A stretch of DNA of 64,000 nt, from the NCBI GenBank assembly GCA_030141605.1, contig JAQGDQ010000090.1, positions 434,001 to 498,000 on the forward strand, read 5' to 3'. Under the pieces are notes generated by a model. That model ran no database searches, was not told the origin of the DNA, and was given only the letters and a program-made list of their open reading frames with translations. Below are positions 5,006-36,253 of the stretch, one piece after another. This DNA is from Tubiluchus corallicola. Lineage: Eukaryota; Animalia; Priapulida. Both the position numbers and the translations under genes were made by a program. Positions within the stretch are counted from its first letter, which is position 1. Every line of letters starts with the position of its first letter.

Positions 5006-5190
<185 letters not shown>

Positions 5191-5676
5191 TCATTCACCA
5201 CAAAAGAGGAATGACAGAAGCACACGAGAAAAAATTAACCAACAAATCACACAATTTGCAAGTGTGTTGAAACGAAACCATGACAGTTCATTTACATACA
5301 TTCCCTAAAATAAAATTGGCGTTATATAAAATGCCTAGGAAAAGTGTAGAAGGAGCTATTTTAGACACGTTACTTGGCTTGTTTTGGCACTCTATAAAAT
5401 TATAAGCATTCTAGAGAATACCTGATTTCACACATTGCCTGTAACATCGTAATTACTCTGTAATGCACAAATGTTGCAATAATGGGCGAGGTTTTGAATT
5501 TGAATTAGGATCTGTGACCAATAGTTGTGATATGTAATTGTGCAAGACATTGCGCTTGTAACATAGCTTTCTGGTTCGAACTCCAAGCTTAGTTCTAATT
5601 TTTTCACATTTTTCTTTGTCCTAAATTGGATTAAAAATTTCTATAAAATAATAATTGTGGGTTTGTTTATTCATTA

Positions 5677-6110
5677 CGCCGCGTTCAGACTAGCGAGTTG
5701 GAAAGTTTACACTTGGCGAGTTTACAATTCCCCGCACAATTTAAGTACGCTAACCATAATTCTAACCCTAACTCTAACCCTAGTCCGTTACATGAACTAA
5801 TTATTTTCTAATTGCGCATTCAGACTAGCGAGTTCTCCCACGAGTTTTCTTTCTGATAGCAATCTCGCAAGTGTGAACTGTTTAGCAAGTTACTGTTGGT
5901 AATTAAACACTCTTGATAGTTACTTGGCGAGTTAACTTGGCAAGAAACTCGCAGTTTAAATTAATTCACCAAGTAACTCGCAATAGTGCTCAGTTAGTCT
6001 CAAAGAGTTTGAATTTTTTGCCGACATTAACTCGCAAAGCAGTTCACACTTGTTAGTTTGCTGTCAGAGAGAAAACTTGTGACAGAAAACTCGCTAGTCT
6101 GAATGCGCCG
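5677..6110. mobile_element. MITE, PIF/Harbinger-like, in GXYLT intron 4
   Basis: Left end CGCCGCGTTCAGACTAGCGAGTT versus reverse complement of right end CGGCGCATTCAGACTAGCGAGTT (21/23); TTA on both flanks (5674-5676, 6111-6113). Confidence 0.75.
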
Positions 6111-6167
6111 TTAGAAAATAATGTTCTATCAAATTTTTGCTTGCTTGGCATTTGTTATGCTCTTTAG

Positions 6168-6317
6168 GTGTGAACTCTGGGATAATGTTGATGAATCTAA
6201 CAAAAATGCGTTCTTTCAACTGGGTGGAAAAAGTCACAACTCATTTTGCGAAGTACAAAGAGAATCTCACATTGGGTGACCAGGATATCATCAATATCAT
6301 ATTCCATTTCAATCCAG
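6168..6317 (+). CDS. GXYLT: GXYLT-like exon 5
   Basis: TCTTTAG acceptor; GVNSGIMLMNLTKMR...GDQDIINIIFHFNP are GT8 NSGV and DQD motifs; donor G|GTATGA. Confidence 0.92.
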
Positions 6318-6777
6318 GTATGAACCAAGCTTGTATGTTCTATAGTGCTGTAAGTATTCACATTATCTGTCACAATAAATGCTTATTTTGGTCAGCTCTG
6401 CAAAATTAACAATTTCTCTTTTTCTTTTATTCGTATTATTCTCACTCCGTCCTTTGCTTCCATGTTGTCTTTTACGTTCACACATCAGGTTTCGTATTAA
6501 ACTCAGTCTGTAAAAACTTACTGGTCAAAATGTCAAAGTAATGCACAAATCTGTTATATCAAACCTCTTTACTTGCAAATCTCGATTTGAAACAACGACG
6601 ACGACGACAACAATGACGAACCCGACGCCGCCGACAACAACAACAAGTAATGGCTTTCTTAAGCAAGCTCGTTTATGCTAAAGCATTTACAGTTTGTAAA
6701 GATTATTGAAAAGTTACAAGATTCTCATGTAAAGGCTGACAATTACAGCACTAAAAAGTTCTGTCTTATTGTTCCAG

Positions 6778-6950
6778 ACAGACTGTATATATTTCCTTGT
6801 GAATGGAATTTTCGAATTCACCATTGCATGTACCAGATGATCTGTGATTCTGCTGCTCAAAATGGTGTATCCGTCTTACACGGCAGCCGTCAAGCTTTCC
6901 ACAAGGATAAATATCCTGCTTTCAAGGCAATTTACGAGGTTTTTTCAAAG
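6778..6950 (+). CDS. GXYLT: GXYLT-like exon 6 (followed by a GC donor)
   Basis: GTTCCAG acceptor; DRLYIFPCEWNFRIHHCMY...LHGSRQAFHKDKYPAFKAIYEVFSK; ends at AAG|GCAAGT. Confidence 0.88.
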
Positions 6951-7862
6951 GCAAGTGTTCAGAAATATGTCTGTGTTCTATTTACCTGTATGCGCCCACG
7001 CAAACAGGTCTTTATGCAGATAGCTGGGTGCTCTACGACTAGAGTATCTTTAGGCCTCCGTGACTAGGCTCAATAGTCCCTTATTCTTAGGTGGCTGTTA
7101 TCTAACTATATATTATAAGAGCAAATGTTTCCCCTTTTTAGAATTACAATTATTTAGTTATTTTGGAATCTAGTCCAAAAAATACAAGTATATAAATTTA
7201 AGGATAATAAAACATTACTGCAATTAACTTTAAATTTATTCATAGTCTAATACATGGGTATGATTATGCATTTACAAATGAAATTGTTCACTATTTGCTA
7301 TTCATACTAATGTCGGAATTTAAACACATTGTATTCGAATGTTACCAGATTGATTTAATCAATTTTTAAAAGAATAAGCCGCTTTTCGTACAATTACGTA
7401 AAACTACTGAAGTTAGAAATTGACACATTTTTGAGGTGGTATTGTGTTGTTAGCCTGCACTATACTATATCCGGGATGATTCTCGTTTAGAATAATCCAC
7501 GTATGAGATATAATCGTATAATTCTTTTGTACATCATGTAGCATATCTTAAAATTGTATCAATTTCTCTAGTTATGTAATCGTTATCGTTTACTAATCTA
7601 TTAATGCGTAGTAGGCCTGTAGGCTTGTAAACGCTTGTAAACGCTGTAAGGCTTAATATGATGTATTATTAAACAGACTAATAGGTTCATCCTCAGTTTT
7701 GTGCATTGGAAATACCATTAGATGTGATCATTAATAATTATGCGCATATTTTTATCTGATGTTATTGTTTTCTTTTTCTATCGGGTATAAAAGAAATGTG
7801 AGTAAAAGCCTTCTCTAACTCATGTCTGTTCAAAACCTAACGTCATGAGTTTTTGATTTCAG

Positions 7863-12289: not shown

Positions 12290-13270
12290 TCCACCTGGAG
12301 TGCTCAAAATATTACCGCAAGCGTGGCTAACCTTCTTAGTGGCAATATTTACGTTTTAATGTTTCGGTGTGCCATTATGCCCACCTGTTGGGCTTCTTTA
12401 TGGCTAATAGTGATAATCAAGAAAGGCCGTCGGCAGTCCTGCAACAATTATCGCGGTATATCAGTAATGGATGCCTTCGCCAAATTGTATGATGCCATGC
12501 TTTGTCAACGCCTCCAAAAGTGGTTTTGCCCTGACCGCGGTGCCCAGCAGGTGCCCAGCGCGAGCGGGGGTGTTTGTAACACATCCTCACCCTTCGGTTA
12601 CTCATGAATTACGCACTGTGCCAAAAGAAAAGGCTTTTTATAATCTACGTCGACTTTGGCAAAGCGTATGACAGAGTACCTCGTGTCGCTATTATTAATA
12701 CCTTGGCAGCTTTAGGATGTGGTTATGCCATGGTATGCCAAGGTATTATTTGTACCTTATATTCAGACACGCAGATAATTTTTGGAACGGCCACAATTAT
12801 AGCAACTATTGGTCTTCGTCAGGGAAACTTAACATCTTGCTTTCTTTTACCTTGTATCTAAATCCGTTTGTGAGGTGAATGAAACACGTGTGTGGAATAG
12901 ATGACTTTCTTGGTTAGGTCATCTATGTAGAGAAAATTTATGGTGGTGAACGGTTCTCTGGCGGACGGAGTGCAACTTGTAGTTAACAATGTGTGTGTGC
13001 TGAATTGCAATGATTACACTTATTTAGGGGCTGTCTTTACTCAAGATGGGTCGCCCGATGCTGCTGTTAGGGACATTTTAAATCCAAACAGCCACACTTG
13101 AAATTTGTCTCTTTTGTAGCTAAGAACATTGACTTTTCATTTTGGATAAAAGGGAAGTGCTAGAATCTGCATTGCTCTCGTCCATACTTTATGGGTGGGA
13201 AGCCTGGATATGTGGCAGTGTTCGTATTGGCGAGGTTCCGTACCGCACTACGATTAAAGCTATAAAAATA
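12290..13270 (+). mobile_element. Decayed LINE reverse transcriptase fragment
   Basis: KKG...CNNYRGISVMDAFAKLYD, IYVDFGKAYDRV, GLRQG and YTYLG, ILYG.EAW: RT domain motifs spread over several frames with stops. Confidence 0.9.
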
Positions 13271-13632
13271 GCAATGTCAGAAAACATACACAATCGTAGA
13301 AAATGTAAGATTATCTCACCGACAGAAGCCTTTATTGAATTAGTAAGTTTTCAGGTCATATAGATGCGGCGGTCATATAGATGATAGAGTAACTATGTCT
13401 AGTGATAGCGCTTCAACACGTGTTGTCGTGATGACAACTGCAATTTCTGCAAAGGCTGGACGAAAAATGATCATTGTTGATCCTATTGTTACCTAGTTTA
13501 ATTATGACATGACTGCATATCCATAGTAGCACTTCAAAATAGTCTGATTTTATGGTTAAATTGCAACTGAATAGCGTTGTTGATAAATGAATCTAGCCCC
13601 ACTGATAACTTGATGATTTTGGGTCAACGAAA

Positions 13633-14955
13633 ATGTGGTCGCCTAACGAAAGAGCCATGGAAAGAGGAACTCCTTTTCCAGAGAAGCTTTGGCATCTCCT
13701 GTGCAGCGCCCCAAGTTCGGGTGGCCTGCGCTGGAACAAGAATGGGGATGGCATTGTGATAGACGTCGCTAAATTTGAGAAACGTGCAGCTAGAGTATAC
13801 CCTTACAAGCTTCTGGGCAGTCCAAAGTTGAATACCTTTACCCGGAAGCTCAACGTTTATGGCTTCCGGAAACTGGTTTATTCCTTAAAATCCCGAAGAC
13901 AACATTTGGAGTATTTCCATCCAAAATTTACAAAAAACTGTCCGCCGAGTATAGCAAAATCCAGAAAATTAAGCAGTTCCTCGAGTGATTATTGTACGAA
14001 GAATGCAAAGAAAGATATCGCAATACAGGAAAAGGTGAAAGTAAAGGAAAAGGTCGGGGTAACAGTGCAGACAGAGAAAAAGCAGAAACATTGTGCAACT
14101 TCAGTCGAGCAAGAATTCAAAACTCTACTTAAAGGTGAAAATAAGACAAACTTTACACTGTATAATAAGGACCCATTGACCTTGTGCACTTTAGATATGG
14201 AATGTGAGGAGGACTCCTTTCCTGACTGCCCTTCACCGGAGCAATTAAAATCGCCTCAAGAAAGATTATCATCAGAAAAACTAATATTACCAATTCATCA
14301 AAAACCGTCAAAACAAGTAAAATTTGAAGAAGTCGAATCATTAAAACGACTGAAGTCAACAGAAATGTGTCAGGTGGACCAACAGTCAGAGAACAAAGAC
14401 GTGTGCAACAGAAGTAACATCACCTTTCCAGCACAGAAGGTTGTAGAGGTAGGTCAAAAAGCACTGACTGATGATAAAGACAAGAACAAAAAAAGTCGAC
14501 AGAATTGCAACACTTCCCTAACAATCAAGTTTCCAGAGCATCACAAGACATGTCAGAGCAAGTTGTCAGACGGTGACCACAAAAGAAGTTTCACAAAGTG
14601 CAATACTTCACAAATGTTCAGATCCTTGGTGCTTTGCCAGACAGGCCACAGAAACTTGTCAGCCGATGATTCTTACCAAAAGGGATTTTTGAATCAGAAA
14701 TCTTTTCCGATGAGAGAATCTCCAGAACACAAGAACAGAAAAATGTCTGTTGATTATGACATGCACAAAGGAAATCACATAAAATACAATTGTATTTCTC
14801 CAACCGTTTGTACAACTTCGACATTTTCTTCTCCAGCAGGTACACAGCCGCGCTCTCCAGCATTAGTGTTTTTACCTTTTATTTTAACCTCCACTGGATT
14901 CATCCCCTTTAAATGTACTACATCGGCTTTGTTGAATTTGCCAAATAAGAAATAG
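13633..14955 (+). CDS. Intronless HSF-type DNA-binding domain protein (HSF5/HSFY-like architecture), 440 aa
   Basis: FPEKLWHLL...LRWNKNGDGIVID...FEK...TFTRKLNVYGFRKL...EYFHPKF is the HSF winged helix-turn-helix; ATG to TAG uninterrupted; AATAAA at 15129. Confidence 0.85.
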   Translation: MWSPNERAMERGTPFPEKLWHLLCSAPSSGGLRWNKNGDGIVIDVAKFEKRAARVYPYKLLGSPKLNTFTRKLNVYGFRKLVYSLKSRRQHLEYFHPKFTKNCPPSIAKSRKLSSSSSDYCTKNAKKDIAIQEKVKVKEKVGVTVQTEKKQKHCATSVEQEFKTLLKGENKTNFTLYNKDPLTLCTLDMECEEDSFPDCPSPEQLKSPQERLSSEKLILPIHQKPSKQVKFEEVESLKRLKSTEMCQVDQQSENKDVCNRSNITFPAQKVVEVGQKALTDDKDKNKKSRQNCNTSLTIKFPEHHKTCQSKLSDGDHKRSFTKCNTSQMFRSLVLCQTGHRNLSADDSYQKGFLNQKSFPMRESPEHKNRKMSVDYDMHKGNHIKYNCISPTVCTTSTFSSPAGTQPRSPALVFLPFILTSTGFIPFKCTTSALLNLPNKK

Positions 14956-15869: not shown

Positions 15870-17520
15870 TAAATTAACGCAACACTTTTGAGTTTTAGGC
15901 GAGTATAAAAAAGGAAACAAATGCGAAAATTGCTCTTCCTCCAAAAACAGGTGAAATCACAGGGGAGAAAACTGTCTGCGACATGTTCGGTGAATACGCC
16001 ATTTCTAATTTGTCCTTCCGCAAGTCGGCTGAACATGACGCCATTAAATCCGAGCATTTTAGAAACGCGTTTCATATGCTAGCAATATTACTAGCAGTTT
16101 TCTGTAGCTCCTGTGTGACAAGCTGCTTTTTGCCAGATGCACTTATGCTGTCAGTGATTATTCGAATCGAAAATAAGGAAATCACAGTCACAAGTAATTA
16201 GAGGCCGATAGCACTCTCCTCAATGTTTAGCAAACTTCTTGAAATCTTACTGTTAAACAAGTACGGCTATTTACTTTTGACGACGCCAAACCAATTTGGT
16301 TACCTTGATAAATTAGGAACAGAAATGTTACTATATACCATGAAAGAGTTTACTGATTATTATCGGCGTGAAAGTCCAGCTCACCCTTTATTTTTGGATG
16401 CGTTAAAAGCTTTTGATAGAGAGAATTACTATAAACTGTTCTTTAAGCTAATAGATATCGGTTTTCCAAATATTGTCATTCGTTTTATTATTCACAGCAA
16501 AACAGGCTAGTAAGGTGGGGAAATTTTAATTCTGCGATGTTTAAGGTCGGAAATGGGGTTAGCCAAGGCGTGAAAATGTTTCCTATACAATACTTTCGAG
16601 ATTTAAGCGTAAATCTTTCATCAACTGGTCTCGGTTGCCAAATTGGAAATACATACATTAATTACCTGATGTTTGCTGTTTATCCTGTTTATCGCTGACG
16701 ATGCGTGTTTAATAGCATCGACTACAACAGCTCTGCAAACTCTAGCGGATACATTGTCCGTTACGCAGACAAACATGACATGATGATAAATGTCGAAAAA
16801 ACGAAACTTCTGACTATTACTCACACTACAATGCGCCATTGCAGTTTTGGGCCTGTTATTGTAGCTGTTAGCATAATTCGTCCGTGCGAAATTGAGAAAT
16901 ACCTCGGCCGTATAATTTCCGGAGATAACAAGGACAATATTTATATTATTAGGCAACGAACTATTTACTATGTTAGAGCAAATAGAATCATGAGAAAATT
17001 TTGTCATTGTTAAAATAAGGTTAAAACTCGCTTGTTCAATTCTTGTTGTAACTCATTCTATGGTATGGCAACATGGCGGCATTTTTACAATTACAGTTTG
17101 AACAAACTTAAAGTAATTCATAACATCTCTAAACGGAAACTATTCAATTATTCATATGATGACAGTGCTAGAACTATTTCAGTAAATTATAATGTTTACG
17201 TACTTTGATTTTGTATTTAGTTAAAATGACTTACAGTTTGTACATGAGGGTAATTCATAGTTCAAATTCATTAATTAGAGCATTATCTCAAAGTGAAGTG
17301 GCTTACATTTCTGACATTAGAAGACAGTGGAAGGAATTATTATAGAGAAGTTGTAGTTAGTCAAATTTGTGTCCTAAGCATAGTAGGATCTTTTTAAATC
17401 TGTGTGTATAATATGTAATGTTGTAAATATTATGTAATTGCAGTGTTTGTTTTTTATTTGTGTACAAAACTATGAATTTGATTCGAAATAAAAAGTTAAA
17501 TGAAATCAAAATAAATAAAT
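15870..17520 (+). mobile_element. Decayed LINE (RT domain to 3' end)
   Basis: NY/*RPIALSSMFSKLLE, NQFG, FLDALKAFD, NGVSQG, MINVEKTK, EKYLG, followed by an AT-rich 3' UTR and A-rich tail at about 17485-17520; many stops and frameshifts. Confidence 0.88.
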
Positions 17521-20502: not shown

Positions 20503-20583
20503 TCACAATATGCGTGATTCCAAGGCACGGCGAAAGATTTCTAAACTTGAGCGACTTGATATCTTCCAAAACGGAAAATTCAT
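20503..20583 (-). CDS. eya-like: Giant EYA-domain protein, terminal exon
   Basis: TTTTCAG acceptor; MNFPFWKISSRSSLEIFRRALESRIL* matches the EYA C-terminus 'NMPFWRIS.H.DL.AL..AL...YL'. Confidence 0.9.
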   Translation of the reverse strand: MNFPFWKISSRSSLEIFRRALESRIL

Positions 20584-20984
20584 CTGAAAATAAATTACGT
20601 CATTAAAGATTGGTACAAAGAAAAATCTGAACATTTCAAGTGAAATTCTGACCCATCGGATCAGTACCCGAGACGCTTATATAAATGTGTTTTGTAAACA
20701 TATTTCTTTATTTCCAGAATTGAAAATGAAGCCCTGTGAGCTTAAATCAAATCTCTTGAATCTCTTCTGCTGCATGTCAGAATTTTTTTATACCCGTTTC
20801 ACTCCTACAACAACATTAAACTCAATTAAGTTCATTAAAATTAGACTCTCTAGGTGGTAAAAAAAGAACACCTAAATAAATGCTACATCTATGTTAATAT
20901 CAAAAGATAAAAAAGAAAAAATTCTAGCTGAAATTATTTAGAATTGCTAACTTTATATGAGCTTATCTTAAATCAGTAACCTAC

Positions 20985-21085
20985 CTGCTTTGCAGCAGCT
21001 TCTTCCTCTTTCCCATCACCGATTACCATAAAGTAGGAGTCATGCCCAAATCGTGTAGCTATCCGCTCAAAACAAGAGCGCTTTC
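20985..21085 (-). CDS. eya-like: EYA-domain exon (HAD motifs III/IV)
   Basis: (G)[33 protein letters not shown] matches 'GKESCFERI..RFG....YVVIGDG.EEE..AK'; TTTATAG acceptor, CAG|GTAGGT donor. Confidence 0.93.
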
Positions 21086-21748
21086 CTATAAAAAATTGTC
21101 AAAATAATCAAAAGCAAATAAAACCGAAAAAGAACTCATACTGAGACAAAATTTACCAAAGTTCCACAACCGCATTTATAATTTGTTTGTTAGGCCTGAC
21201 GCTTCAAATATTACGCACTTTTACACTAAATTTCAATATGATAAGAAGTTTAAATTTTCAAGTTTTAAAAGACAGTCGAAGCAATTGAAATATTTTTGCT
21301 TTTTAACAATCCACTCGGCTTATGAACAAATAAAATTACAATAATTTATATTGACATTATGCGCGGCATTCGCGAATAACAATGTAACAGATATTGATTA
21401 CAGCTGAAAAATGTTATTTTTAATAAATAAGTTCTAAGTCAGTTTTTGATAAATAACGGCACAACTGTATTGATTAATCCATAAAGAATTACAATATAGC
21501 AGACACTGAGTACATTTAAAATGATTTGTTTTTGCATAATTGTTTTGCTATGCATTCATAAACAGAGCTAATAATTTATCGAAAAACTAATCACTTCATT
21601 TGAAGATATCGCCTCTGAAAACGAAATAATTCAAATAAATTAAATTTAATAGAAATATTTTGATGATGTGACTTCCCGAAACGTACGTTCACATTTAGTA
21701 AACGCGTCAATACAATTAAGTTCATTTCAGGTTTTTTCAACGGCTAAA

Positions 21749-21905
21749 TTTACAATTCCCCAGACGCAGGAAATTAGATCGTGATGCGGATTAGGACTAG
21801 GGTTAGGATCAGGATTAGGGCTAGGGTTAGGGTTGGGTTAGGGTTTGGGTTATTTAAATGTTACTGTTATAATTAGGATATTTAAATTGACAGGAGAATT
21901 GTAAA
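21749..21905. repeat. Short element with TTTACAATTC inverted ends and degenerate TTAGGG core, in an eya-like intron
   Basis: Ends TTTACAATTCCCC and (reverse complement) TTTACAATTCTCC; core GGACTAGGGTTAGGATCAGGATTAGGGCTAGGGTTAGGGTTGGGTTAGGG. Confidence 0.6.
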
Positions 21906-22074
21906 CTTCTTCCAGTTCAACTTATTTTTCTATAAACCTTATGATACATATTGCAAGACAGGATTAAAAATATGAAATTACTCATGAAACGCGTTATGAA
22001 AAAACTAATTAATTCAACTTTATAAAAATTATTAGGTAAACTATTTTTATCATTTTGACTTTTCATATACTCAC

Positions 22075-22196
22075 CCCCTCTAGCGGCGCTGTAGACATTT
22101 TCGATGCTGAATGGTGCAGCCAAATTGTAAAGCATCAATTTTGCCAGTGCGGGTAGCAATCGTGTTTGTGTCACCAACACATTAACATGGTGGGGC
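22075..22196 (-). CDS. eya-like: EYA-domain exon (HAD motif II)
   Basis: (R)PHHVNVLVTQTRLLPALAKLMLYNLAAPFSIENVYSAARG(G) matches '[22 protein letters not shown]...FPIENIYSA'; phases 2/1 fit the neighbours. Confidence 0.93.
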
Positions 22197-22622
22197 CTGA
22201 AGTAAATGAGAATCAGGTGTGATTAAGACTGCATCCTGTAACTCTTACTATAGCAAATGTATAAATAACCATTGGAAAAAACAAACTAAACAGATTTCAC
22301 TTTTGGTCGTGCCTCTAGCTATCTTTTTATAGAGTTTAGCAACAATGCAAACCCAAATCAAGAAACTCATTATGTTGGTGGATATAGCGAGACCGGGATC
22401 TAGCAAAATCACTATCAAGAACAACCGTTGGATATGGGACAATGAGCTGATTCATTAGTTGTACACCTTTCCTCAACGATAGAAACAGTCGGAGACAGTA
22501 TGCTTAGTTACAAATCAATTTGCTAACCAGGCCTGGTGTTACTTAACCTCAGTTGCTAAGCAGACACAGTGACCACTCAGCGATTTTTACCGGTATTTAT
22601 TACCCTATTGTGTGTTACACAC

Positions 22623-22737
22623 CTGGATAAGATTAGAGTGAGTATCTCTTTAGCCAAGGTCATCCATCCATCACAGTAATTCAGGATCGAAGTGATCAAA
22701 TTGAGCCACTGTTCGCGAAGGGGAGGATCTAGCAGAC
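22623..22737 (-). CDS. eya-like: EYA-domain exon (helical cap)
   Basis: (G)LLDPPLREQWLNLITSILNYCDGWMTLAKEILTLILS(R) matches 'GLLG..KRE.WLQLR...E..TD.WLTLALK.L.LI.SR'; TTTTCAG and AG|GTGTGT. Confidence 0.9.
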
Positions 22738-22868
22738 CTGAAAATATTCAATGGGAACGAGTCTTTACGTGATACACACAAGTTTAGACGATTTTTATGC
22801 TTCTTAAAACGTAACTCAAATGTAAACGTGATCTAAAAAGCAAAAATTTTACAGTTATCAAATTTTAC

Positions 22869-22981
22869 CTGTCAGATTGTGTTGATAAGCGTTATAGAGT
22901 TTCTGTATCCTTCGATACCTGATAAGCAACCATTTATCCTCTTCGCGTATTTGCGGGTCAATCTCGTTGTAATATTGGTCT
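22869..22981 (-). CDS. eya-like: EYA-domain exon (helical cap)
   Basis: DQYYNEIDPQIREEDKWLLIRYRRIQKLYNAYQHNLT(G) matches 'LAFRYRR.KE.YN.YKNNVGG'; TTGCAG and G|GTAAAA. Confidence 0.88.
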
Positions 22982-23354
22982 CTGCAATGATGTTAATTTG
23001 ATTTTCGCGGGACGGAATGAACAAGTAAATGTAGAAAAACCCAAACGTACACATATAGTTGAATAAAAATTTTCTAGATAACTTGTAAAATTTTACAAAC
23101 AAACAAACAATAAAAAAATGATTTTTCATGCAAATAATGTTGTTATCCAGTAATAGACCTTTTTCACCAGGCAATTCCTTCGTTCTGTCCCGTCCTACAT
23201 CAACAACTGATAGTTCAATTGAACCTTACAGAAAAAATAAAGAAAGTAATAAGAAGGAAAGAAAACAAGAAAAAAAGGAAGTGAAAGAGTGAAGGTAGGA
23301 AAGTAGGAATTTTTAAACGAACGAATAAATAATCCACAGTTATTATTGACGTAC

Positions 23355-23419
23355 CCGTTTTGCCTTCCATTTTCGTAAACGAGTCCCGGCACATCGTAAA
23401 CATGTTGGTGCATAGTTGG
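23355..23419 (-). CDS. eya-like: EYA-domain exon (divergent)
   Basis: PTMHQHVYDVPGLVYENGRQN(G) aligns loosely to 'DQVHIDDVSSDDNGQ'; TTTTTCAG and GG|GTACGT; phases 0/2 join both neighbours. Confidence 0.8.
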
Positions 23420-23783
23420 CTGAAAAATGTTTATTCTAGTCAAGATTCAAATTGCTGACTTTATTTAAGATAAAGTACCAAGTACAGACGTTAAAGTACT
23501 GACTCCACACTCAGGGATAAAACAACGATTTTAATCAAAGTAAAAAGTGCTGATTTCAGGCAAGATTGAAGCATTGATTCTATAAAAGGAACGTACATGT
23601 AATGATGTTAGTTGAAAGTGCCACCTTTCAAGGTGAACGTACCGCCCTAGTCAAGGTGGGAGTAGTGATTCTAGTCTAGGTGAAAATGCTGATTCAAGCC
23701 TAAGTGAACAATCGTGCACAATTACTCTGCAAATTTCTCAAGTTGGGCAATTAAAAATTAAAGAAACACAAAATCAAACTTAC

Positions 23784-23873
23784 TGAAAGATCGTCGTAGA
23801 AGAAATGTGAAACTAAAACAGTGAACAGAAGTTCTTCCATCTGTTTGCCAAGTTGAATACCCATTTCTCTGTC
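23784..23873 (-). CDS. eya-like: EYA-domain exon
   Basis: DREMGIQLGKQMEELLFTVLVSHFFYDDLS matches 'D......LG..MEEMIFNLADTHLFFNDLE'; CTTTCAG and TCA|GTAAGT. Confidence 0.92.
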
Positions 23874-24200
23874 CTGAAAGACACGATCAAACGTTTGCTC
23901 AAGATGTTTTTATGTGATGACTAACAGCTTCGCTGAGGAATAGCCATAACTTTAACATTGCAAATGTTAGTCGCCACCTGAGTCCTTTGCTGATAGAAAG
24001 AATTTAGAGCAATACAAACTGAATAATGTCAAATGACTTATCACTGAAAATTAACCATATTGTGATAAATCATTGGTTAGCTGTTTCTAGATACATTTAA
24101 AAAATGAACAGTGCGCTTACTATAGCCTGTTATTTAGTGCAGCCAAATTTAGCATTAGCGAAATGAGTACAAAGTTTGAAGATTCATAAGCTAAACTGAC

Positions 24201-27200
24201 CTTTCCGTACTTCCGCGCAAAGGAGCCTGTCAGCAAACTTTGGAACAAAAGTATGGTTTCGTCCAGGTCCCAAATGAAGACCCGCCTCTGAACTGCTAGT
24301 CTGTCATTTGGCCTAGCTTGTGAGCATATCTTTTCTAAGTGCTCCAAATCTGTAGAGACTTCGGCGTTATCTGTAAAACTGCTTCTAGTAGGATCAGAGA
24401 AAAATCCTGCGTGCCATTCGGGATGTGCCGCAAACTCTGAAGGTATCAGCGTTATTGGTATACGCTTTGTGGTGCCAGGAGGCCCAGGAGTTGACAAAAC
24501 GACTTCATTAACACGTATTCTTTGAGGTAGGATTTGTTTGTCATCACCGGGCAGTGGCCAGTTCTCGTATGCTTCACTTGGTAGGGGTTTCTTTTGCAGA
24601 TTAACGTCTCGATAATCTACACTTGAAATATCATGGCCTTGTACTTCGTCAAAAGAAGGCTCTGATTGAAAAGTTTTCACAACAGGAGATTGATTCAGTA
24701 TTGTTCCACCATGATAGGGCGGAACTTCATAATGTTCTTTTATCTGGCTGTCGGGTAACCTATAATCAGGTGCTGTAGATGTGGGTAGAATTGCATTTCT
24801 TTGCTTGTCTTGATCAATTTCTCTGTTGAACTGTTCATTGGCAGCTGCAACTCTACCTGCCATGTGACCTCTAGATCGGAGTTTTGGAGTCTTGTCATCA
24901 GATGAAGAATCGGAACTCGGGTCTTCATAATTCCACACCTTTACTTGAGGGTTGAAACTCAACCGCTTAGGGGGTGCCTTCTTCTTCCTAGGAAGTGTAC
25001 AGTAGTCAGGAACATTAGACGTTGGTGGCATGACAACTTCATCTTGTTCGCTTGCACTGTTAAGTTTTGTGTGCATATCTGTCAAAGCATCAAACAGTTC
25101 TGGGAATCTCCCGCTACTTTTAATAATGTCATTGCTTTGTACCTGCTGCTCATTTGCATTGCGATTACTATAAGACATTGGTACATTTGAACTCAACAGA
25201 ACAGCAGGTCGTTGGTATGGAGATGCTGGATTGTTTGAGCTTTCACGTACAGTGTTTGTGGAACAGTCTTCATGAGAATTACCAATCATATCTAATCGTT
25301 CTGGAAGTGAAGATGACATACGCTTAGTGAGATTTCCATAATGCATAGCGCCTACATCTTCATTGGCACGTCGAATTGGAATTTCTCTTTGTGATAAGTT
25401 AACTAACTGTTGAGCAGAATTGCATGCAGGAAATGAACTTCTTGACTTGTTCCTGATGTCTGTTGGTTCTTTTCTATATATAGTAATTTTATCAGGCACT
25501 TGGAAATTGTTTGTATCAAGTCTTGTGGTTCTACTGGGAGAGGTTTCTGTATTTGACATGCTTTTATGATCACCTACAGCTTTCTCAGTGAGATGCGTTT
25601 GCTTTGGTGTTACAGGTTGCTTGCTATAGAAAGTGACAATATGATCTGGGATGGTAGTTTTAACCTCGGCATTTTCTCTCTGTGTAACGTCTGTAGTTCT
25701 TGGAGTGCTTTTTGCCAGTTTTTGCTCTCTGTTACTTTGTATTCTGTTTATTGGAACAGGAATGCGCGACCTGGGTTGTTTTGTTCTCATCGCATCCTGA
25801 CTATCACTTTGCTCTGCTTTGTCTTGTTTCATACCAACTTGTGCAGGATAAATCCAGCTGTTGTCTCTTAAATGCATCTTAACAGAATCAATATTGTTAG
25901 TAGTTGTACTAACGTCACTATTTGGCGATTTGAAATCGCTTGTTTCTGTTGTAGGAATTGAGCCAGAGTTTTCTTGTAGTTCAGTATCAACTCTTCTCAG
26001 CTCACTAAAACTTGGTGCAGTCTTGTGCAACTGTGAGGGATGATCCCTAGTTTCTGGATGCACTAGAGGATTTACTTGCAAACGTGAGAAAGTATCACCA
26101 GCATCATTGTACAAATGTTCTTGGTTACATTTTTCTTCAGTAGCCATCTTCTGTGGGCCAGTTGCAGCAGCATTTGCCAATTCTGAAAAGCCTCTTGTGT
26201 AACTTGGTTTTTCGGTAAATTTTTCCATGTACTTTTCATTAGGCACTTCAACGTCTGTTGCTGGCCATCTGGTGCTTGTCCCAGAATTTGTTTGGGGGCC
26301 GAATCTCCCAAAGCTGGATGTTTCAGCTGATTGTGGCTGATATGTACTAAGGTTATTTGCTTTGGATGAAACTGTTTCTGAAGTAGAAGGCATGTTTATG
26401 GAGGTGTCAAAGCCTGGAAATGAATGGGATCTAAAATCATTCTTACTACTTGATTGTGAAAATTTTCCAGGTATAAATTTGACTGGTATAATTGGCTGGC
26501 CCAGCGTGAGAGGAGGTCTGTCTGGAAATTTAGAGTAAATTGGCGCAGAAAGCTCATTCTTATCTGAAAATACATTACTTGCACTTTTCTGAGGCTGCAC
26601 ATTAACATAGTTGTGAGATCTCCCAGTTTCTAAGAATGGTGAAGGACTTCTAACTTGTGAAATCTGCTCATCAGACTTTGGACTGAAAGGTCTAGTAAAA
26701 TGTTCGGGACTTCCTTCATAAGCTGGTTTCATAAATAACCCTTCAGTATCTTCATCATCAGTATATGAGTTCATTTCAAGTTTTTTTATCAAGCTATCTT
26801 CCAGCTTTTTGTTATAGTCATCATCATAATCTGGGATGGGTTTTGCTGGGAGTGTTTTATAAGAATCAGCGGGCAATGTGCTCAAGACAGGCTCAGACGA
26901 CACTCGATACAGAGTCGTAATTGGTGGAAAATATCTTCCTGGTGAGCGTAATGGGGATAAGGGTGGGGAAGTTGATTCTGCATTACTCCATTCACGTTGA
27001 AAACTGGGAACTGGTCTGGTTGATTTTGGTATTTTAACAGTAGGTTGCTTGTATGTAGCCATTCCACTCTTTGGCAAGTCATCCACAATAGGAGCAGCAT
27101 GCACACCGAATGAGCCTGGAGGCTGATAAATAGGAGGCTTTCTTCTTGTAAACTGATCTGAGGCAGAGGCAAATTTTGGATATTCAGGCAAATTTGCTCT

Positions 27201-30200
27201 GTCTTTTGATGTTTCTAAAAGGTTATCTCTCGAAGAATCTTCCTTAAAAACAAAAGAAACACTGCCATCTTTGTTAGTCACTTTACTGGCATTAATTGGT
27301 TTATAAGTAGATTCTTGTTGAGCAGGTGTGACGCTGTTATCATTTGGTCTTTTAGCTTCGTGTGGTATGGGGGGTATCATAGATGGGCTAGGAGGTTTTT
27401 GGGAAAGCTCATTGTCAAGAGATGCATGCAAATCTTTCCATGTCATATCACCTAACATAGGTTCTGAAACAGATCTATTGTGGAATGTCTTTCGTGTAGG
27501 TACTGGACTACTACCAAGCACTCCCTTATTTCTTAATAGATTTCGCCTCTCTGTCATTTTCTTTAGCCATGCAGTGCTTGGGTCAGCTGTGGTGGAATGG
27601 CTTTCTGGAGCAGATGGTTGTGATGTTTCTTTCTGAGAAAATGTTTTTGGCATTGACTTGTTGTCTGACAACTGCATAATTTGGCTTTCCGCAAACTGGT
27701 GAGGTATTGCAGTTGCGTCATTTAGATCAGAACCTGTTCTCTCAGCCACTCTTTGGTTTACTGATAGGTCAGTGTCGCGTCCTTGTGTATCTCGAGTAAC
27801 ATGTTCAGGGCTGGGATAGCTGGACAGATTTTCCTTTGGCAAAAGGTTTCGTGGGAAATAGAAGGATGAATTCTCAGCTGAGCTTTTTTTTGTACTGTTG
27901 CAGTCACTTCGTGGTTGTGCAATACTAATCAAACTGGGAGTAGAATTTTGAAAAGCAGAAGTGGATTTCCCAATTACGTAATCATTAATGGCACCTTCTC
28001 GAATGCCTTGTTCCTGATCAGTTTCAGGTTGGTTACTTTGAGGATAATTTAAGATTTCTTTAGCATATGGCATTATACCTATGCCATCAGTTTTTTGCTT
28101 GTTCTCATCTTCTTGAGTGGCACTAAAATTTTGTAATGTTTTGTCACTAAGATGAAGAGAATCGCCCAGTGGTCTTTGTTTTCTTGTTGGGTCATCAGGT
28201 CTCGAAAATGACCCAATTGTACTTACAGCATTTACATCTCTTACAGTTGGGCTCATTGGTTTTAGCCATCCATCTGACTGCCACGTATAGCCAGTCAGCT
28301 TTGATGGTTCTTGAATACTGTCATGAACTTTGCTTGCATCTACACTTGTAGATGGTGCTTGATGATCATGCTTATTGGTAGGTATTGGGTGCAGAATTTT
28401 GTTGATTTCTTCCTGCAGTTTTTGAGACCGAACAACAATTTCAGGATTAATGGGAGTTTTACTAGTTTCAGGTCTATCATGATTTTGCCAATCATTAGCA
28501 AATAAGCTGTTGTAACTGGGTGGACTGGTTAAGTTCTTATCTACTGAATGCCTTACGGAAGACAGAGAATCAGTAACTGCGCCATCAGAGTTTGTTTTGT
28601 AAGGCGAAGCAGCTTGGATTCCACTGGCATCTGCATTGCTGCCTGACTTGCTCTGAGTACTTTTGTCAACAGTGTTCTTTTCAGAGTCCTTTTTATACCA
28701 TCCAGCACTAGTTTCCTCATTAGCAACCGTGTCCTTTTTCATTTTTACACCTAACAATGAAACTAAGTCAGTATCACTATTTTTGTCAATTTGAACTTTA
28801 GAAAATGGCACATTTGTTTGCGGTGCAACATTTTCCTGGGGGTTTGACAAGGCTTTACTACCTGGTAATGAAGTAAGTGTTTTCCCACTGTGACTGACAA
28901 TTAATGACCTAATTTCATCGTTCTGAGGCACTCCTTGTCTGGCTTCTTCATGTCCATGTGATGTTTCCTTTGGTATCGTTATTGGTTTATGCAGTGGCTG
29001 GCTAGATGCTTCTGCCACTGAATTTTGTGTTGCTGATCTCTTTTGAGTGCTTTCCTTGTTTTGTCCGTTTTGAGTGACTTTGTCTAAAGTACTTCCGGAA
29101 TGATTGGAATACAGCATTTGTTTTATTGGTTTCTTGATGTCTTTTAGCAGAGAAAGTTGAGGAGAACTATCAGTGGACACTGATCGAATAAATTGCTTCC
29201 ACATAGAAGAATCAGCTTTATTAGGGTCAGCACTACTTCGTCTCATCTTACTTCTTCCCCTTCGCGAATCTAACATTTTGTTCCAAGGTGTTGCAGTTGA
29301 AATCATAGCTTTATCGGGGTTAGCGAATGATATTTTGTCGGAAATTTTTGATTTTACACTTGTTGTTGGAGTTCTACTTTGAGTAGATGCTAGCTGCTTA
29401 GTATTTGCATCTGCAAGCTTTGTCTTAGCATCCAACTGACCTGCTGATGATGTTTTTGCTTGCAGCACTCTGTCGTGTTGGACATTAGGGTTTCGGTTTG
29501 GCATTGCAAACTCAGAGTCTATTTCTGCTTTTGTGGATGTCATTGCTTGCAACCATTGCTGTACAGGTGACATTGGGGGAGTTCTATTCTCACCATGTAA
29601 GAGATTTGACACATTTTGATTGTTTTTGGCAAAACTAGGATTATTACTAATTGGCAATTGATCAGAAAGCATGCTGTAAGACAGATAACTTGTTTTTGGT
29701 ATTTCCAGATCACTAAAAGAAACAGTGGAAGCAACAGAATCAGTCATACTCTGTTCTAGCGATTCGTCAGCATTTAGTAATTCGGAGTTTTCTCCTGGCC
29801 TTCCCCTCGTATATGGAGATGGACTAAGATTTCTAAATGCTCGTAAGTCAGCCCCATCTATATCACTCATCATACTTGATGTCATTGATGCTGTTTCATT
29901 GTTGTCATAATTCCTTGCACTCCATGGTGACACATTATCACTGACAGGTGGGCTAGAACATAAATCAGGATCAGGAGCTCTTAGGTAAAAGCGGATGTCT
30001 GGTACAACGCCCTTGCTTTCTTTTCTGTCTGGAGGACGTGGTGGGTTTTTATATAAAAAATCACTTAACCGCCTCTCTCGAAAAGCAGAACCAATTGGGA
30101 CGTCCGACCAGTAACCATCATTTTTATCTGACTCCACGGAGTAATAATCTGAAATGCTGCTGACATCAGCTTCCTGTTTTTTTGGAAGTCGTTTTTGCTT

Positions 30201-31183
30201 TCGGGGATTACCTTTGTTTTTTGTTGTCTTTTCATTGTGCTGCTGGTCAGCATCTAAATGCACTGCACTGTCAGATGTCTGGAAGGAATCACTCAAATCT
30301 GATGCCGTTGACGCAGCATGTTGAAGAGGCCCTTTCTGCTGAGAAAAGACTGGTTGATGTTTCTTGTAATCTGTCACAGTCTCAGGGAAAGTATGTTCCA
30401 CTTTGCCTGTAGACAGCTTTTCATTTACTGGGGATTGCTTTGATAAATCACTTTGCTTTGAAGTAGATGGCTTTTCGTCCATACTAGCTGTGGGATTCCC
30501 ATAAGGAGTCAGTACATTTTTTTCCAACACATGTGCGTGTCTCATGTTAGTAAATGAGCTATTCTCAACATCACTTTCAATGTCACTTGTCAGATCGGCA
30601 TGTTCTGCCTTAGTAAAGCGACTAAACACTGGTGAGTGGTGAGTTGCATTTTCCTCTGAATTATTTTCAGTCTTGGAAAACTTAGCAGACTTTGTTGATG
30701 ATAAATCCATTACTCTAGGAATTTCTATTATTTGGGTTGGATCCTCAGCCACCTCGCTCTTAATAGTTGAGCTAAATGTAGGCTTGTGTTCAATTAACTG
30801 TCCACGAGTTGGCAGAAGAACAACTGTGGGGTCCGCATCATCATCGTTTGAAACGTCTGTTGCATTACTCAAGCTTACACCAACATGCATATCTCGAGCA
30901 TCAGTTTTGCTTGCTTTTTGATCGTAAGAAGGAAGGCTGAAACTAGTCGTCATGGTGTCATCAGGTGGAAAACATGACGGTAACGACACTGTGAATGATT
31001 CACTGATCTCACTGTCGATCAGTTCGTCCTCATAGCTTCTGCTTGGTTGTTGTATGGCGTGGTTCAGCAGGGCCATTTCTGCTACAGCACTTGATTGCAC
31101 ATTAACAGGATAATCCATGATTAGTTCGGCAGCGCAGTCGTTAAACAAGTTTTTATCTGGTGCTTTGTTGCTTTCATCATGTG
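24201..31183 (-). CDS. eya-like: Giant 6,983-nt exon: about 2,300 aa of S/T/P/D/E/K-rich sequence plus EYA HAD motif I
   Basis: Stop-free; acceptor GTTTTTTAG at 31184; ends RRVFIWDLDETILLFQSLLTGSFARKYGK|GTCAGT, the EYA signature WDLDET. Confidence 0.9.
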
Positions 31184-34167
31184 CTAAAAAACAAACGTAT
31201 TTAATTTTGTAAAGTGCATGTACAACACCCAGCTGCTATTTTATGTTCACTCTCATAGTGTCTTGTGAATAAACAACAACTTAGCAATCTGTTAGCGAAG
31301 CAGATTGACTTTTGCGAGCGCTTGTAAGTTATCAGTTGATTTCAGACAAACTGTCCAGAAATACCTACTCTTCTGCGAAAGTATTTTTGACACGAACGGG
31401 AGTGAGAATTTCATGCAGTTACTCAACGTGGTTCACTCATACCAACAGACAGACCTCTAATCTTTAGGCCAATTAAAGCCATGAATGACATAATTAAGCA
31501 CGTGAATAAATGTAGGTTGTGCTAGACTATAGCGATTAGCAATGCACCACAAAATTACCATTTGCTAAAATTTTTGTTAAAAGTGAATCTGGGAAACGCA
31601 GTTGCTTTGTATAGATAATTAATATTGTCTGCTCTTGTTCATGCTGCTTTGATTCATTATGTCAGAAATGATTCAAAATTCAGCTTGTGCTGACTTGTCT
31701 CTAATAAAATTGATTTATAATTTACTTTTGTACTTTTTGTCTCTACAATTATTAATCATTATTTAATTTTACAACAGAACCGTTCAAAGTTTATTGCTTC
31801 GACAAATTGCAAACATTTTTTACTCTTTTGTATAAGTGCATGAAATCTTCACGTTCTGGCACCAGTGGAGCTTGAAAAAACATGTTTGTAGAAGAACCAC
31901 ATGTTTGTGGAATGCTTGTCGGAAATTCGCAGATAGATGGCTAATTAGAAGATTTTAAAAGAAAAAAAATTATCAAGATTGATCAAGGTAGAACCTGACA
32001 GAAAGTCAAAATCTAACATCGAGGCATGGCAGCCTCACAAGATGTATTTTAATTTGTTTTAACTAGACAAACAGGGGCTTCATTGTCTCAACATTCGAAA
32101 CATTGAAGTTTTAAGGCGATTGAGGTAGTAAAGACTGTATAAGGGTGTAAATATGCAATTGAAGCAGTTATACTCTCAAGTAGATTTACAATGAAGAAAA
32201 ATAGGCTAGTATAATACAGTGACCCACAAGAGGGAGGCCCTGTGTTTCCAGGTGCACAGGCAAAATTTCGAATCAGCGAGAAAGAATTTTTGCCACTGGA
32301 GGAAAAGGAGAGAAATTCAGTCAGAAGAGGTGCTAGAAATTGGTAAAATGCATTCCGTAGCTTATGTATATGCATCAAACGAAATACGAATATACACAGT
32401 TTTTCTGTTTTCAAGGAAAGTGGGCATTAAACTCAAATGGAAAATTTGTTCTGAGAGGATTAACTTCTTTTAATGGCATTTAGTAAAGCGCTTTTGAATT
32501 GTTCAGCAGGGTGTTGAAAAGAAAAATTTTAGGATCGATTGAAACAAACGAATGTGACCTTGGGTCTGGAACTACTGGTGTAAAATAAAGACTTATTGGT
32601 TTTTTGGTACTTCCTTCAGGGGCATATCGCGGTTTTGCACTTAATGTAGGAACTATTATGGTATGGAAACTTTTGGCTCTTACTATTTATTTGCTATGTT
32701 CTTTTGTTCCATACAGGAACTTGCCGACAATTCTTTAAGCCTAAATTTGGCTATGTTCCATTACACACAAACCGTACACACGCAGTGAAGAAAACCGAAT
32801 GACGCATAATCGTCATCACCCCAAATACTCGATCCCATGCCGAAACATAAAATTATCTCTTGTTTAAAAACATGTTCTTTAGAAAGGATATCGCTATTTG
32901 TTTTTTTCTTCGCGTGGAGTGAAAAGAAAAACTTCCCAGGGTTTGTTAAAAAATAAACAAATCCGGATCGTAATTACTTTTTAAATTTACAGTTTGTTGT
33001 ATTTTTGCGCAATTTGTTACATATGTCGAAACAAAATATATTCCACTATCGGCGTTGTGGAATTGGAAAAAATTAGCTGTTGCAGACACTCTAATCTTTT
33101 AAATTTCAGCTTTCGGTAAAAGTATCCTTTTACCTATTCTTTAATTATCAACTATATAAACTGTTGAAAATGACAACATAAAAATAATAAAAAGGGTAAA
33201 CAAAAGAAGTCGTGCATTACGTCGCAATGAAGTTGCATTTTGAAATCAGCACACCGAAATTAACAAAGAAAGCCAATGAAATTCGTTTTGGCCTAAAAAA
33301 CGAAAAATCTGTCTGGAATATAATTCAATATATATATATATATCGAACCTATCCCCTAAACATGGGATCCTAATAAAATCCTGTGTGAGGACTTTTGCAT
33401 TTGCAACAATTTGGACATTTTGACCTATGCCACGTGACTTAGCGACGCCCATTTTTTAAAACCAATTAATGCACATACAACCCACCCCACTTCCACGTTT
33501 GTGAAAAAGCTCAAAGTCTTATGAATAACTTAGCGATAAGCTTAATTGCTAAATAATACCACCGGTCATTTTGTAATCCAAGAATGGCAGCTGAAGATGT
33601 GTTGGAAAATATGGAATTTTTGAAGAAATTGACAAAACTGGCCAAAAAACTATTTTACCTCAAAAATCGATCTAAGCACAAATTTTTGGTGTAGCTCACT
33701 ACACTAAATCGCAAAAAAATATAAAAGAATCAAACAAGGCGCTCCCTTCTATGGATCTATATTGCTTCTTGTTGTGAATATACCCAGCTGCTTTGCAAGC
33801 AGGTTTTTAGTGAAACACTTAATTGAAAAAGACCGCCTCGTGAGTCGGAGGAACCAGTATTGAATAGCTTTATTTTTAAATCAAAGCAGCTCTATTTAAG
33901 GAATTCAGAAAAAGAAGTTTTTATTAATTAAGAAAATGATCTAGTTCCAGACCTCAACTTATTGAATCGAACATTTGAGTAATGGCGTTCAGTCAATTTT
34001 ATAGAATAAAACATGAGTTTTAACGTGCTGACTGCATATTTATAGCACTGACGCAGTGTTCCGCTGGAATCCCCCATTGCTTAATCTTGAGTGATTTGTG
34101 AAAGTTCTTAATACTGTGTCAGTATGCTAAATAAATACAACACCATAAGCCTTTAGAGCATACTTAC

Positions 34168-35053
34168 TAAATTCGTGTCCTATGTGACCAGCAGAGAAAA
34201 TCTCTTCTTCAGCTGGCTTAGTTATGGTGTAAAACTCGTAAGTAGGGATGACGCTTGTTGTTTCTTCTGTTTGTATACTAATTTCTCCTTGTGGAAAGCT
34301 GTCATTCCTGGCGTCTTCAACGAAATTACTCTTCTCTTTTGAAAAAGGAGAAGTTGACTTATTCGCAAACAGATATAATGTGGACGGTCCGTTTAAGCAA
34401 CTGTATATGGACAATTCTTTAGCTTCACGGGTTGACGACTCCTCAGTTTGATAGGCAGCTGATTCGACGTCTACGAACACTTCTTCTGGTTCTTCCACTT
34501 GATTGCAAATGGAAAAATTTCCAGATTCTTGACTTGTTTTTTCTACTGCTGGTTTCACAGCTGTTGTGACATCTACTGACTCTTCTTTTTGCCCTTCCAC
34601 TTGGTTGTGCGTGGATAATCCTTGCACAGATGTTGCAATCTCTATGACTCTGTCTTTTCCTTTTAGCTCTTCAAGTTGGTCATGTATAGACACCGTTTTG
34701 TTCTGAAGTGCTAGCCGTTCTTCTGCTGATCCGTTAATTCCTGTGACTTCTGTGGCAGGTTCTTTTGCTTCTTCGCCTAAGTTGTAGTAATTGGTCAGCT
34801 TAATTCTATTTGTTTGGGCTTCTTCTACTGACCTGACAGCTGTTGTGTCCGCTTCTCTTGTTTTGTCAACTTGGTTATGGATGATAACTTCTTGACCTTC
34901 ATTTGTTGGAGTTTCTCTTGCTGGTTTGGTAGTTGTTGCAATTTTTACTAAGGGTTCCTGTGTTTTCGAAGGTATTAACACAATAACTGCTGTGGAGCGA
35001 AAGTTCCATTCATTTTCCGAATCGCGAACTTCGCTGACTTCATTGTTTTGTTC
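34168..35053 (-). CDS. eya-like: Upstream 886-nt E/T/V-rich exon of the eya-like gene
   Basis: TTTTTATGTAG acceptor; open frame EQNNEVSEVRD...GHEF; donor A|GTAAGT, phase 1, joins the giant exon as ACA (Thr). Confidence 0.72.
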
Positions 35054-35704
35054 CTACATAAAAAGTATTAGGTTCAGAATGTTAGTCAACAAGGAGCGAT
35101 AAATACTTGTGCAACTAAGTCTGAATAATCTGACTCATCCCCACTTAAATATAAAAGATGGCAGCAAGTTTAAGATTCTCACAAGCGAGATGCTAGTTTA
35201 CAACTGGGAATAAATACTTTTCCCGCTTTTCATCTTCAAGATTTTCTCGGCGAAAGACTGGAAAATTGCTGGCAACTTCCCTACCACGCCACTCTACTTT
35301 CAACCTTATATTGCCCAAAGACGCCATTGTAAAGCAAAATTATGGCCGGCATTTAATGATTTCAATGAAATTACTTCCAAATTCTGATTTAAATTTTATA
35401 TCACACAAGCAGTTGTGCTGGAGAAACAGCTCCGACGTACGTTAATAAGATCTAGATACATTTCACTTTATAAGACAGGCTATGCCATCAATGAGAAATA
35501 TAGTTCAGTTTATAGCTAATAAAAGCTTTACTGCCCGTTTCTGACAGTCGAGACTTTCCAAACCCGTCACAGAATTAATTTTTGGGTGCAGCTGTCAGCC
35601 GTCCACTTCACTGAACATGTATTAAATTATTAAAATAGTGCAAATTTTGCCCAAAATCTTTACGTTACCAATATTTTTTATAGTCGCTATTAATAGGCAC
35701 GTAC

Positions 35705-35805
35705 ATTGGAGACAGGCGCTTCTTCTCGTTCTAATGGTTTGTCTGCATCTGTCCAGGTGAAAGAAACTGTTTCCTCTGTGTTTTCCCCTTCCGGTAGGTT
35801 CACGG
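35705..35805 (-). CDS. eya-like: Upstream exon of the eya-like gene
   Basis: TATTTTAG acceptor; (A)VNLPEGENTEETVSFTWTDADKPLEREEAPVSN|GTACGT; phase 0 fits the next exon. Confidence 0.62.
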
Positions 35806-36134
35806 CTAAAATAACAACGCTGCTTAATATTATCCCTTTTATTTTGCTCCAAACAACACCAGTGCAACTATTTAATGCACAAATAAACCAGGCAAGCGTA
35901 TATAATTATGCGCTTTGTTTGTTGTTAGTTGCAGTTCAAGCAACTTGACGGACGTAACGTGAGATTATGGCGTTATTTCTTAACAACACAAGATCGTTAG
36001 TTTCAATCTATGAGACTAACAGTGCGATAACTTCTTCAGATACTATTGCCTAATAAATAGTCTGGCAGTAACGAAACCCGTATTTATCAGCAAAACGTTT
36101 TAAGATCAGGCTAGAAATAAGGCTACAATTGTAC

Positions 36135-36253
36135 CTGACTGCGTGCTGTGGCGAACATATGCTTCTAAATTTAGGACCGGGTTTCCAACTTCGTCTGATG
36201 ATGAATTTTTCCCTCTCGACTCTTGATCAGTGGCTGACACATGCGGTTGCCTC
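36135..36253 (-). CDS. eya-like: Upstream exon of the eya-like gene
   Basis: TTCCTACAG acceptor; RQPHVSATDQESRGKNSSSDEVGNPVLNLEAYVRHSTQS G|GTACAA; phase 1 fits the next exon. Confidence 0.55.

Follow-up and report, generated by a model that had tools for sequence, protein, structure and literature searches.

A divergent EYA-type phosphatase gene of the priapulid Tubiluchus corallicola with a giant, predicted disordered N-terminal tail and a likely relative in Priapulus

Introduction

Animal EYA proteins, such as Drosophila eya and human EYA1-4, end in a HAD phosphatase domain with motifs I-IV, as in EYA2 (PDB 3GEB and 3HB0) and its complex with SIX1 (4EGC). In this study, we analyzed a 64,000-nt stretch of the priapulid Tubiluchus corallicola (contig JAQGDQ010000090.1, positions 434,001 to 498,000; hereafter the window), the minus strand of which carries an EYA-like gene at 36253-20503. 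All coordinates are positions within the window. The gene has the C-terminal motifs, the intron positions and a predicted unstructured N-terminus in common with those proteins. In contrast, the Tyr/Gly-rich N-terminus, basic linker, acidic cap segment and GVRGGVDW sequence, all of which are present in canonical EYAs, set the latter apart from the window protein.

A single eya gene is what is usually assumed for an invertebrate. In a study of two calcisponge species, a single Eya orthologue is given for each (PMC4083861). Other reports describe recruitment of PP2A-B55alpha by the N-terminus of canonical EYA3 (PMC5849647) and, in giant ankyrin-G, a single alternatively spliced exon of several kilobases that adds a very long disordered neurospecific domain (PMC6765271). 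In Priapulus, 'eya' is expressed in the filtering part of the protonephridium and six1/2 in the duct, the accessible part of that report leaving the probed eya unspecified (bioRxiv 10.1101/2020.11.15.378034). The literature on divergent, second or priapulid eya genes and on EYA phylogeny, as far as its accessible text goes and with few subscription papers covered, contained no giant EYA and no second invertebrate lineage.

A preliminary description of the window had proposed a giant EYA-like phosphatase. We report here a specific Priapulus relative for its domain and a candidate ancestral splice acceptor, neither of which that description had noticed. We give slightly better than even chances to the interpretation that the gene forms a second EYA lineage with Priapulus, and that its giant form would be a Mg2+-dependent tyrosine phosphatase tethered by a predicted disordered tail of ~2,660 residues rather than a SIX co-activator.

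Results

Gene model and reading frame

The window is AT-rich animal DNA (~36% G+C) with one very long minus-strand open frame (24123-31235). Rebuilding the gene from splice signals reproduced exactly the eleven exons and the 8,776-nt frame of the preliminary description. All 10 introns are GT-AG, and the joined exons form a single frame of 2,924 codons, whose sole stop is the TGA at 20505-20503. Exon 1 (36253-36135, an internal exon), exon 2 (35805-35705) and exon 3 (35053-34168, Glu/Thr-rich with a phase-1 donor) precede a giant exon 4 (31183-24201) of 6,983 nt. The 2,327 open codons of exon 4 encode ~2,300 Ser/Pro/Thr-rich, predicted disordered residues and motif I. Because the stop rate at the composition of the introns is 6.7% per codon, exons 1-3 alone (368 codons) would be open by chance with P~1e-11, indicating that the frame is open far beyond chance. 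Intron 9 contains a degenerate TTAGGG-like repeat (21777-21854).

The EYA domain

The last ~260 amino acids aligned over their full length with named EYA proteins (BLASTP E~1e-80), and the domain fell inside the animal EYA clade (support 91/86 in a 43-row tree). The protein is thus an EYA family member by its predicted C-terminal domain of ~270 amino acids, motifs I-IV and intron positions, and the EYA domain assigned earlier to the last ~250 residues was confirmed. The end of exon 4 encodes the first ~30 residues of the domain, including motif I (WDLDET, 24272-24255, beginning at residue 2673), in which Asp2674 is the nucleophile and Asp2676 the acid/base by homology. Exon 5 (23873-23784) encodes the cap-domain helix. 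The canonical acidic cap segment is degenerate in exon 6 (23419-23355), and the canonical GVRGGVDW segment is gone from exon 7 (22981-22869). Following exon 8 (22737-22623), exon 9 (22196-22075) holds motif II with Thr2833, exon 10 (21085-20985) holds motif III with Lys2866 and motif IV with Asp2888, and exon 11 (20583-20503) holds the stop codon and the region of the SIX-binding groove, which is partly altered. When aligned to the EYA2 chain, the catalytic set (Asp2674/Asp2676/Thr2678, Thr2833, Lys2866 and Asp2888) was complete, and domain identity to canonical EYAs was 44-48%, in agreement with the earlier proposal that this EYA is divergent but keeps its catalytic residues.

The seven introns within the domain coincided with the ends of tblastn segments at canonical eya loci (16 loci, read by eye), and donor 24201 lies at the position of an intron in canonical eya genes. 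These shared positions argue for duplication of eya at the DNA level and support the predicted junctions.

The domain has changed extensively: it differs from the canonical residue at 66 of the 161 columns that are at least 95% conserved among 120 canonical EYAs. In the canonical motif-II TTT, the second Thr is replaced by Gln. The penultimate Tyr (EYA2 Y537), which we take to be an important residue, is Ile. Among the seven EYA2 residues that Table 3 of PMC11252760 places at the interface with SIX1, N514, P516, W518, A532 and L538 are kept, R519 is Lys, and A528 is Ile (Met in Priapulus).

The giant N-terminal tail

The tail preceding the domain is ~2,660 amino acids long, compared with a median of 350 (276-519) for the N-termini of 120 canonical EYAs. 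Its Tyr and Gly contents are 2.3% and 3.3%, versus medians of 6.5% and 9.2%, so the earlier statement that the N-terminal region is several times longer and lacks Tyr/Gly-rich character held. Canonical co-activators are marked by a transactivation region that is P/S/T/Y-rich and a few hundred residues long; the predicted protein has no such region. The basic RGR-rich linker that precedes the domain at canonical loci is missing as well. The tail is rich in Ser, Pro and Thr with many charged residues, and a FoldIndex-type score was negative in 89% of 53 windows along it. Single-sequence AlphaFold modeling of the last 400 residues of exon 4 gave a mean predicted local distance difference test score of 42, a value that is uninformative by itself because a true EYA strand also scores low.

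Self-comparison of the tail revealed no internal protein repeats, and none of the N-termini of 228 EYAs resembled it at E<0.01. In a Pfam search of 14 pieces, no family was found for the giant exon and none above the cut-off for the EYA-domain pieces; the Atlas gave no usable match for the last 600 residues of exon 4. The longest EYA retrieved was 877 amino acids (849 among the best 150 of 928 in a representative library, where members could hide in 50% clusters). None of 44 long candidates of 1,279-4,073 amino acids scored, in a weak test whose query was the end of exon 4 with ~30 residues of the domain. Within these searches, the architecture was as unfamiliar as first described.

One segment of the tail (25003-24898, residues 2429-2464) forms a conserved island with a basic patch and an RVxF-like match to PP1/cyclin docking motifs (KRLSF, then VKV), behind which come two hydrophobic residues. 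When compared with the RNA run X2 described below, the island showed 5 differences in 106 nt, whereas five further pieces of exon 4 together showed 122 in 996 nt (post hoc binomial p~0.008). The remaining 29 nt of the X2 contig over the island matched nothing in the window. Among 17 linear-motif patterns, only an SxIP-like one exceeded shuffled sequences (9 versus 4.4, p=0.03, uncorrected). PP1 docking at the island is taken only as a lead.

The observed/expected CpG ratio was 0.32 at 26001-29000, in the middle of the giant exon, versus ~0.9 upstream and in the 3' introns; the low value would fit germline gene-body methylation.

A relative in Priapulus

A search with the exon-9 peptide singled out one protein among 12 candidates, the 340-residue 'EYA4-like' XP_014681908.1 (P0001) of Priapulus caudatus. 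The two sequences were paired with SH-like approximate likelihood ratio test support of 100 in a quick tree of 106 rows, and with 100/100 in the 43-row IQ-TREE analysis under a mixture model, for which the bootstrap had not fully settled. Only rows aligned over at least 225 of the 274 columns entered these trees, and the set of canonical fish sequences was reduced. The pair sat on a long stem within an unresolved animal EYA group, without a long-branch warning, and the long branches of Styela and Sycon stayed apart from it. When either partner was removed, the other fell alone among bilaterian EYAs.

The residues themselves point in the same direction. The window carries residues rare in the 120 canonical EYAs at 109 columns, and Priapulus has the same residue in 26 of the 107 that it covers. 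Exon 5 carries the strongest common signature, with 67% identity to the Priapulus protein versus at most 50% for 224 other EYAs (rank 1 of 225), and for exon 9 Priapulus was joint best. Stretches that hardly vary among canonical EYAs are gone from both proteins, and Priapulus departs from the conserved columns at 61 of 161. Taken together, these comparisons indicate that the window and Priapulus proteins are likely the two known members of a real second lineage of animal EYAs, one that evolves fast; convergence is the less likely alternative.

Further members were not found among the best 120 of 1,940 proteins of 596-2,000 amino acids, all of which were canonical, or among the best 150 of 928 in the representative library, which held only canonical or unrelated divergent EYAs. 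In a metagenome scan that kept 80 of 98 eya loci, none had the exon-4 pattern of this lineage. In a Salpingoeca EYA (P0184), SH3-like segments were apparent by eye, one of them inside the domain.

A candidate ancestral acceptor within exon 4

A candidate internal acceptor lies at 24378-24370 in the same phase (phase 1) as the exon-3 donor; if used, it would place the first base of the exon at 24370, with 92 nt separating it from the Phe codon of motif I. With matrices of three lengths built from the 11 acceptors of the gene itself, this site ranked 2-7 of the 535 AGs in exon 4, and joining it to the exon-3 donor predicted an open product of 653 codons. In 12 of 37 canonical loci, a phase-1 acceptor was clearly recognizable 71-86 nt ahead of the Phe of motif I, where it opens a short exon with the RGR-rich linker. 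In a simple scan of the remaining loci, the acceptor pick fell directly before the domain in 3 and at other sites in the rest. Exon 4 of the window also begins in phase 1, but 6.9 kb further upstream. Acceptor 24370 is likely ancestral; it was noticed post hoc, and its use was not observed in the reads. Because it agrees with the canonical acceptor in phase and lies at a similar distance, the giant region may be a stretch that was added to the ancestral exon and can be included or skipped. From its sequence, exon 4 looks like the usual motif-I exon grown some 40-fold, with ~160 nt as the starting size and 6,983 nt as the present one.

Transcription of the gene in a relative

Two sequencing runs were compared with the window. 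In run X1, half of the sampled words were present, identity to the window was ~99%, and all 11 listed indels lay outside exons. Run X2 was small and spliced and was 85-95% identical to the window, so its source is a relative or a cryptic species. Although X1 and X2 are labeled as one species, the coding DNA of X2 differs from the window by ~12%, which suggests a cryptic species.

X2 covered exons 1-4 and 9. Among its 10 contigs, all 8 listed pieces were exonic, and intron 3 had no depth. The exon 1/2 joint (36135/35805) was observed directly, skipping a 329-nt intron with CT..AC ends, and exon 1 showed no difference in 94 nt, making it better conserved than the other pieces. Exon 1 also contains an out-of-frame ATG that opens a 23-codon frame (36242-36171, minus strand). 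The exon-3 piece (34347-34540) aligned without gaps. The loose 26-nt end of the exon-9 contig matched 22637-22662 in exon 8 in 25 of 26 bases.

The X2 pieces in exon 4 spread from 24898 to 29400 and contained two indels of 12 and 18 nt, both of which kept the frame. Of the 105 X2 differences, 40 were listed, including 36 in exon 4 and 4 in exon 9. Among those in exon 4, 11 codons were synonymous and 20 non-synonymous, and none changed to a stop; all 4 in exon 9 were synonymous. Contig depth was 29-102 in the exon-4 extension and 22-47 in exons 1-3 and 9, a measure that cannot rank the parts of the gene.

Neighboring sequences

On the plus strand at 13609-14955, convergent with the EYA gene, lies an intronless open reading frame of ~440 amino acids in which Pfam recognized a DNA-binding domain of the HSF type (PF00447, E 6e-13). 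It may be a retrocopy or resemble HSF5/HSFY genes. It is flanked on either side by decayed reverse-transcriptase fragments (12580-12858 and 16202-16507, plus strand) with weak RVT_1 matches. The plus strand at ~1700-7100 contains several exons with similarity to glycosyltransferase family 8 (PF01501), from a gene that is presumably glucoside xylosyltransferase-like. The ~27 kb at 36300-64000 showed no convincing coding exon on either strand and may be the long first intron of the EYA gene or a regulatory region; two upstream exon candidates from a scan of this region (59904-59819 and 61065-60970, minus strand) were weak and were not accepted. Rfam had no match in the window.

Discussion

The results suggest the following origin and function for the tethered phosphatase. 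An eya gene would have been duplicated at the DNA level, after which the motif-I exon expanded in its 5' part. Judging from the conserved residues and the EYA2 structures, Asp2674 would attack phosphotyrosine and Asp2676 would serve as acid/base, the roles known from EYA2. Location and partners may be chosen by short linear motifs of the tail, the best candidate being the RVxF-like island, and the retained acceptor 24370 would permit a switch between a ~320-kDa and a ~650-residue form, as in giant ankyrins. The scaffold-tethered role is suggested by composition and lost canonical features. We infer a departure from the SIX co-activator role because the Tyr/Gly-rich region and the basic linker are lost and R519 and A528 are changed. 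A fuller version, to which we would assign only a small chance, is that the lineage is old and left the SIX network, and that one 3' splice choice within the motif-I exon adds 2,270 disordered residues docking PP1, which would pair Ser/Thr and Tyr phosphatases much as EYA3 does with PP2A-B55.

Several observations weigh against the tethered second-lineage interpretation. The exon 3/4 (34168/31183) and exon 4/5 (24201/23873) joints of the preliminary description were not spanned by any read or contig of X1 or X2, unlike its open coding frame and the exon 1/2 joint, both of which were seen. The key joins are therefore argued from sequence, namely the conserved donor 24201 and the 203 codons that lead, open and in frame, from the last exon-4 piece seen in RNA to motif I (P~1e-6 if the DNA were intron-like). 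There was no in-frame ATG before codon 391 of the model, and an exon scan upstream found no ATG-bearing exon; the 5' end of the model is thus incomplete, and the predicted protein would be 2,534 residues long if Met391 is the start, whereas with an upstream exon its frame would have 2,924 codons or more. The ratio of non-synonymous to synonymous rates (dN/dS) in the exon-4 tail was ~0.6, a crude estimate indistinguishable from neutral (p=0.08); with the frame-keeping indels and the absence of stops, it indicates that the giant region is coding and loosely constrained. RVxF patterns (a consensus that we assume) matched at residues 985 and 2441-2442, 3 matches versus 3.1 in shuffles, and the extended form gave p~0.1. 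Most of the SIX groove is kept in the domain. Kinship with Priapulus is uneven, since exons 7, 8, 10 and 11 ranked mid-table or lower without excess identity. Overall identity to Priapulus was 49%, near the 46-48% of the best canonical EYAs, and the next best match, an oomycete EYA, had 20 of 107 of the rare residues. The Priapulus protein has Asn in place of the motif IV Asp, and loss of activity may therefore be acceptable in this lineage.

Among the alternatives, we regard as unlikely, but as the strongest of them, that the working product is an EYA-like protein of normal size (~650 residues plus the missing start) spliced through 24370, the 6.8-kb extension being a minor or tissue-restricted isoform and its tail mostly spacer. 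The rank, phase and spacing of 24370, its agreement with canonical acceptors, the open 653-codon product and the 340-residue annotation of the Priapulus relative all fit such a protein, as does the fast evolution of the tail. However, use of 24370 was not observed in the reads, the site attracted attention only post hoc, and just 11 acceptors went into the matrix. X2 depth over the extension was at least equal to that over exons 1-3 and 9, within the limits of that measure, and a frame of 2,270 codons has stayed open in two lineages ~12% apart.

Somewhat more doubtful is the idea that this gene is the only eya of the organism, a fast-evolving orthologue from a lineage including or near Priapulus that still serves as a SIX co-activator, with an overgrown transactivation region as its tail. 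Each long branch by itself does fall within the unresolved bilaterian EYA group, 5 of the 7 listed SIX-contact residues are kept and the tail is still Ser/Pro/Thr-rich, but the numbers of changed conserved columns in the window and in Priapulus are far beyond those of ordinary orthologues, and the tail resembles none of the 228 EYA N-termini. Priapulus genes usually evolve slowly. Least probable is that the giant frame and the EYA exons are separate transcripts, or that the Priapulus pairing reflects convergence of two independently relaxed duplicates: the unobserved exon 4-5 joint, a weak phase-0 AG at 24287 just before the domain (rank 29-76 of 535) and the two long branches would allow it, but a separate frame would run through motif I and stop at 24122 in intron 4, which has no polyadenylation hexamer, donor 24201 sits at a conserved eya position, and neither Styela nor Sycon joined the fully supported pair in the mixture-model tree.

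If the second lineage is real, the wrong gene may be hit in such animals by 'eya' probes or in orthology assignments, and the lineage would offer a natural EYA in which the phosphatase and co-activator roles, whose relation has long been argued, may have separated. With its ancestral acceptor retained, the 7-kb exon would illustrate clearly how an enzyme gains a giant disordered tether. If the short isoform alone matters, what is left is a diverged duplicate of EYA. Long disordered regions are common in invertebrate proteins, which lessens the weight of the finding.

Among known proteins, Priapulus XP_014681908.1 is the closest, as the sister in both trees with non-canonical cap-helix and motif-II-flanking residues in common with the window; its 68-residue N-terminus, compared as annotated in the 340-residue protein, is unrelated to the tail. 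The 266-residue 'EYA1-like' XP_039271941 of Styela clava (P0174), the second, short EYA-like protein of that species, is another divergent animal EYA-like protein; it does not group with the window protein and has no long tail. For exon 4 itself, giant ankyrin-G is our working analogy. The two are not homologous, and exon 4 of the window differs in also bearing catalytic motif I and in that its alternative use is only predicted; the likeness is that one giant exon encodes a long disordered region.

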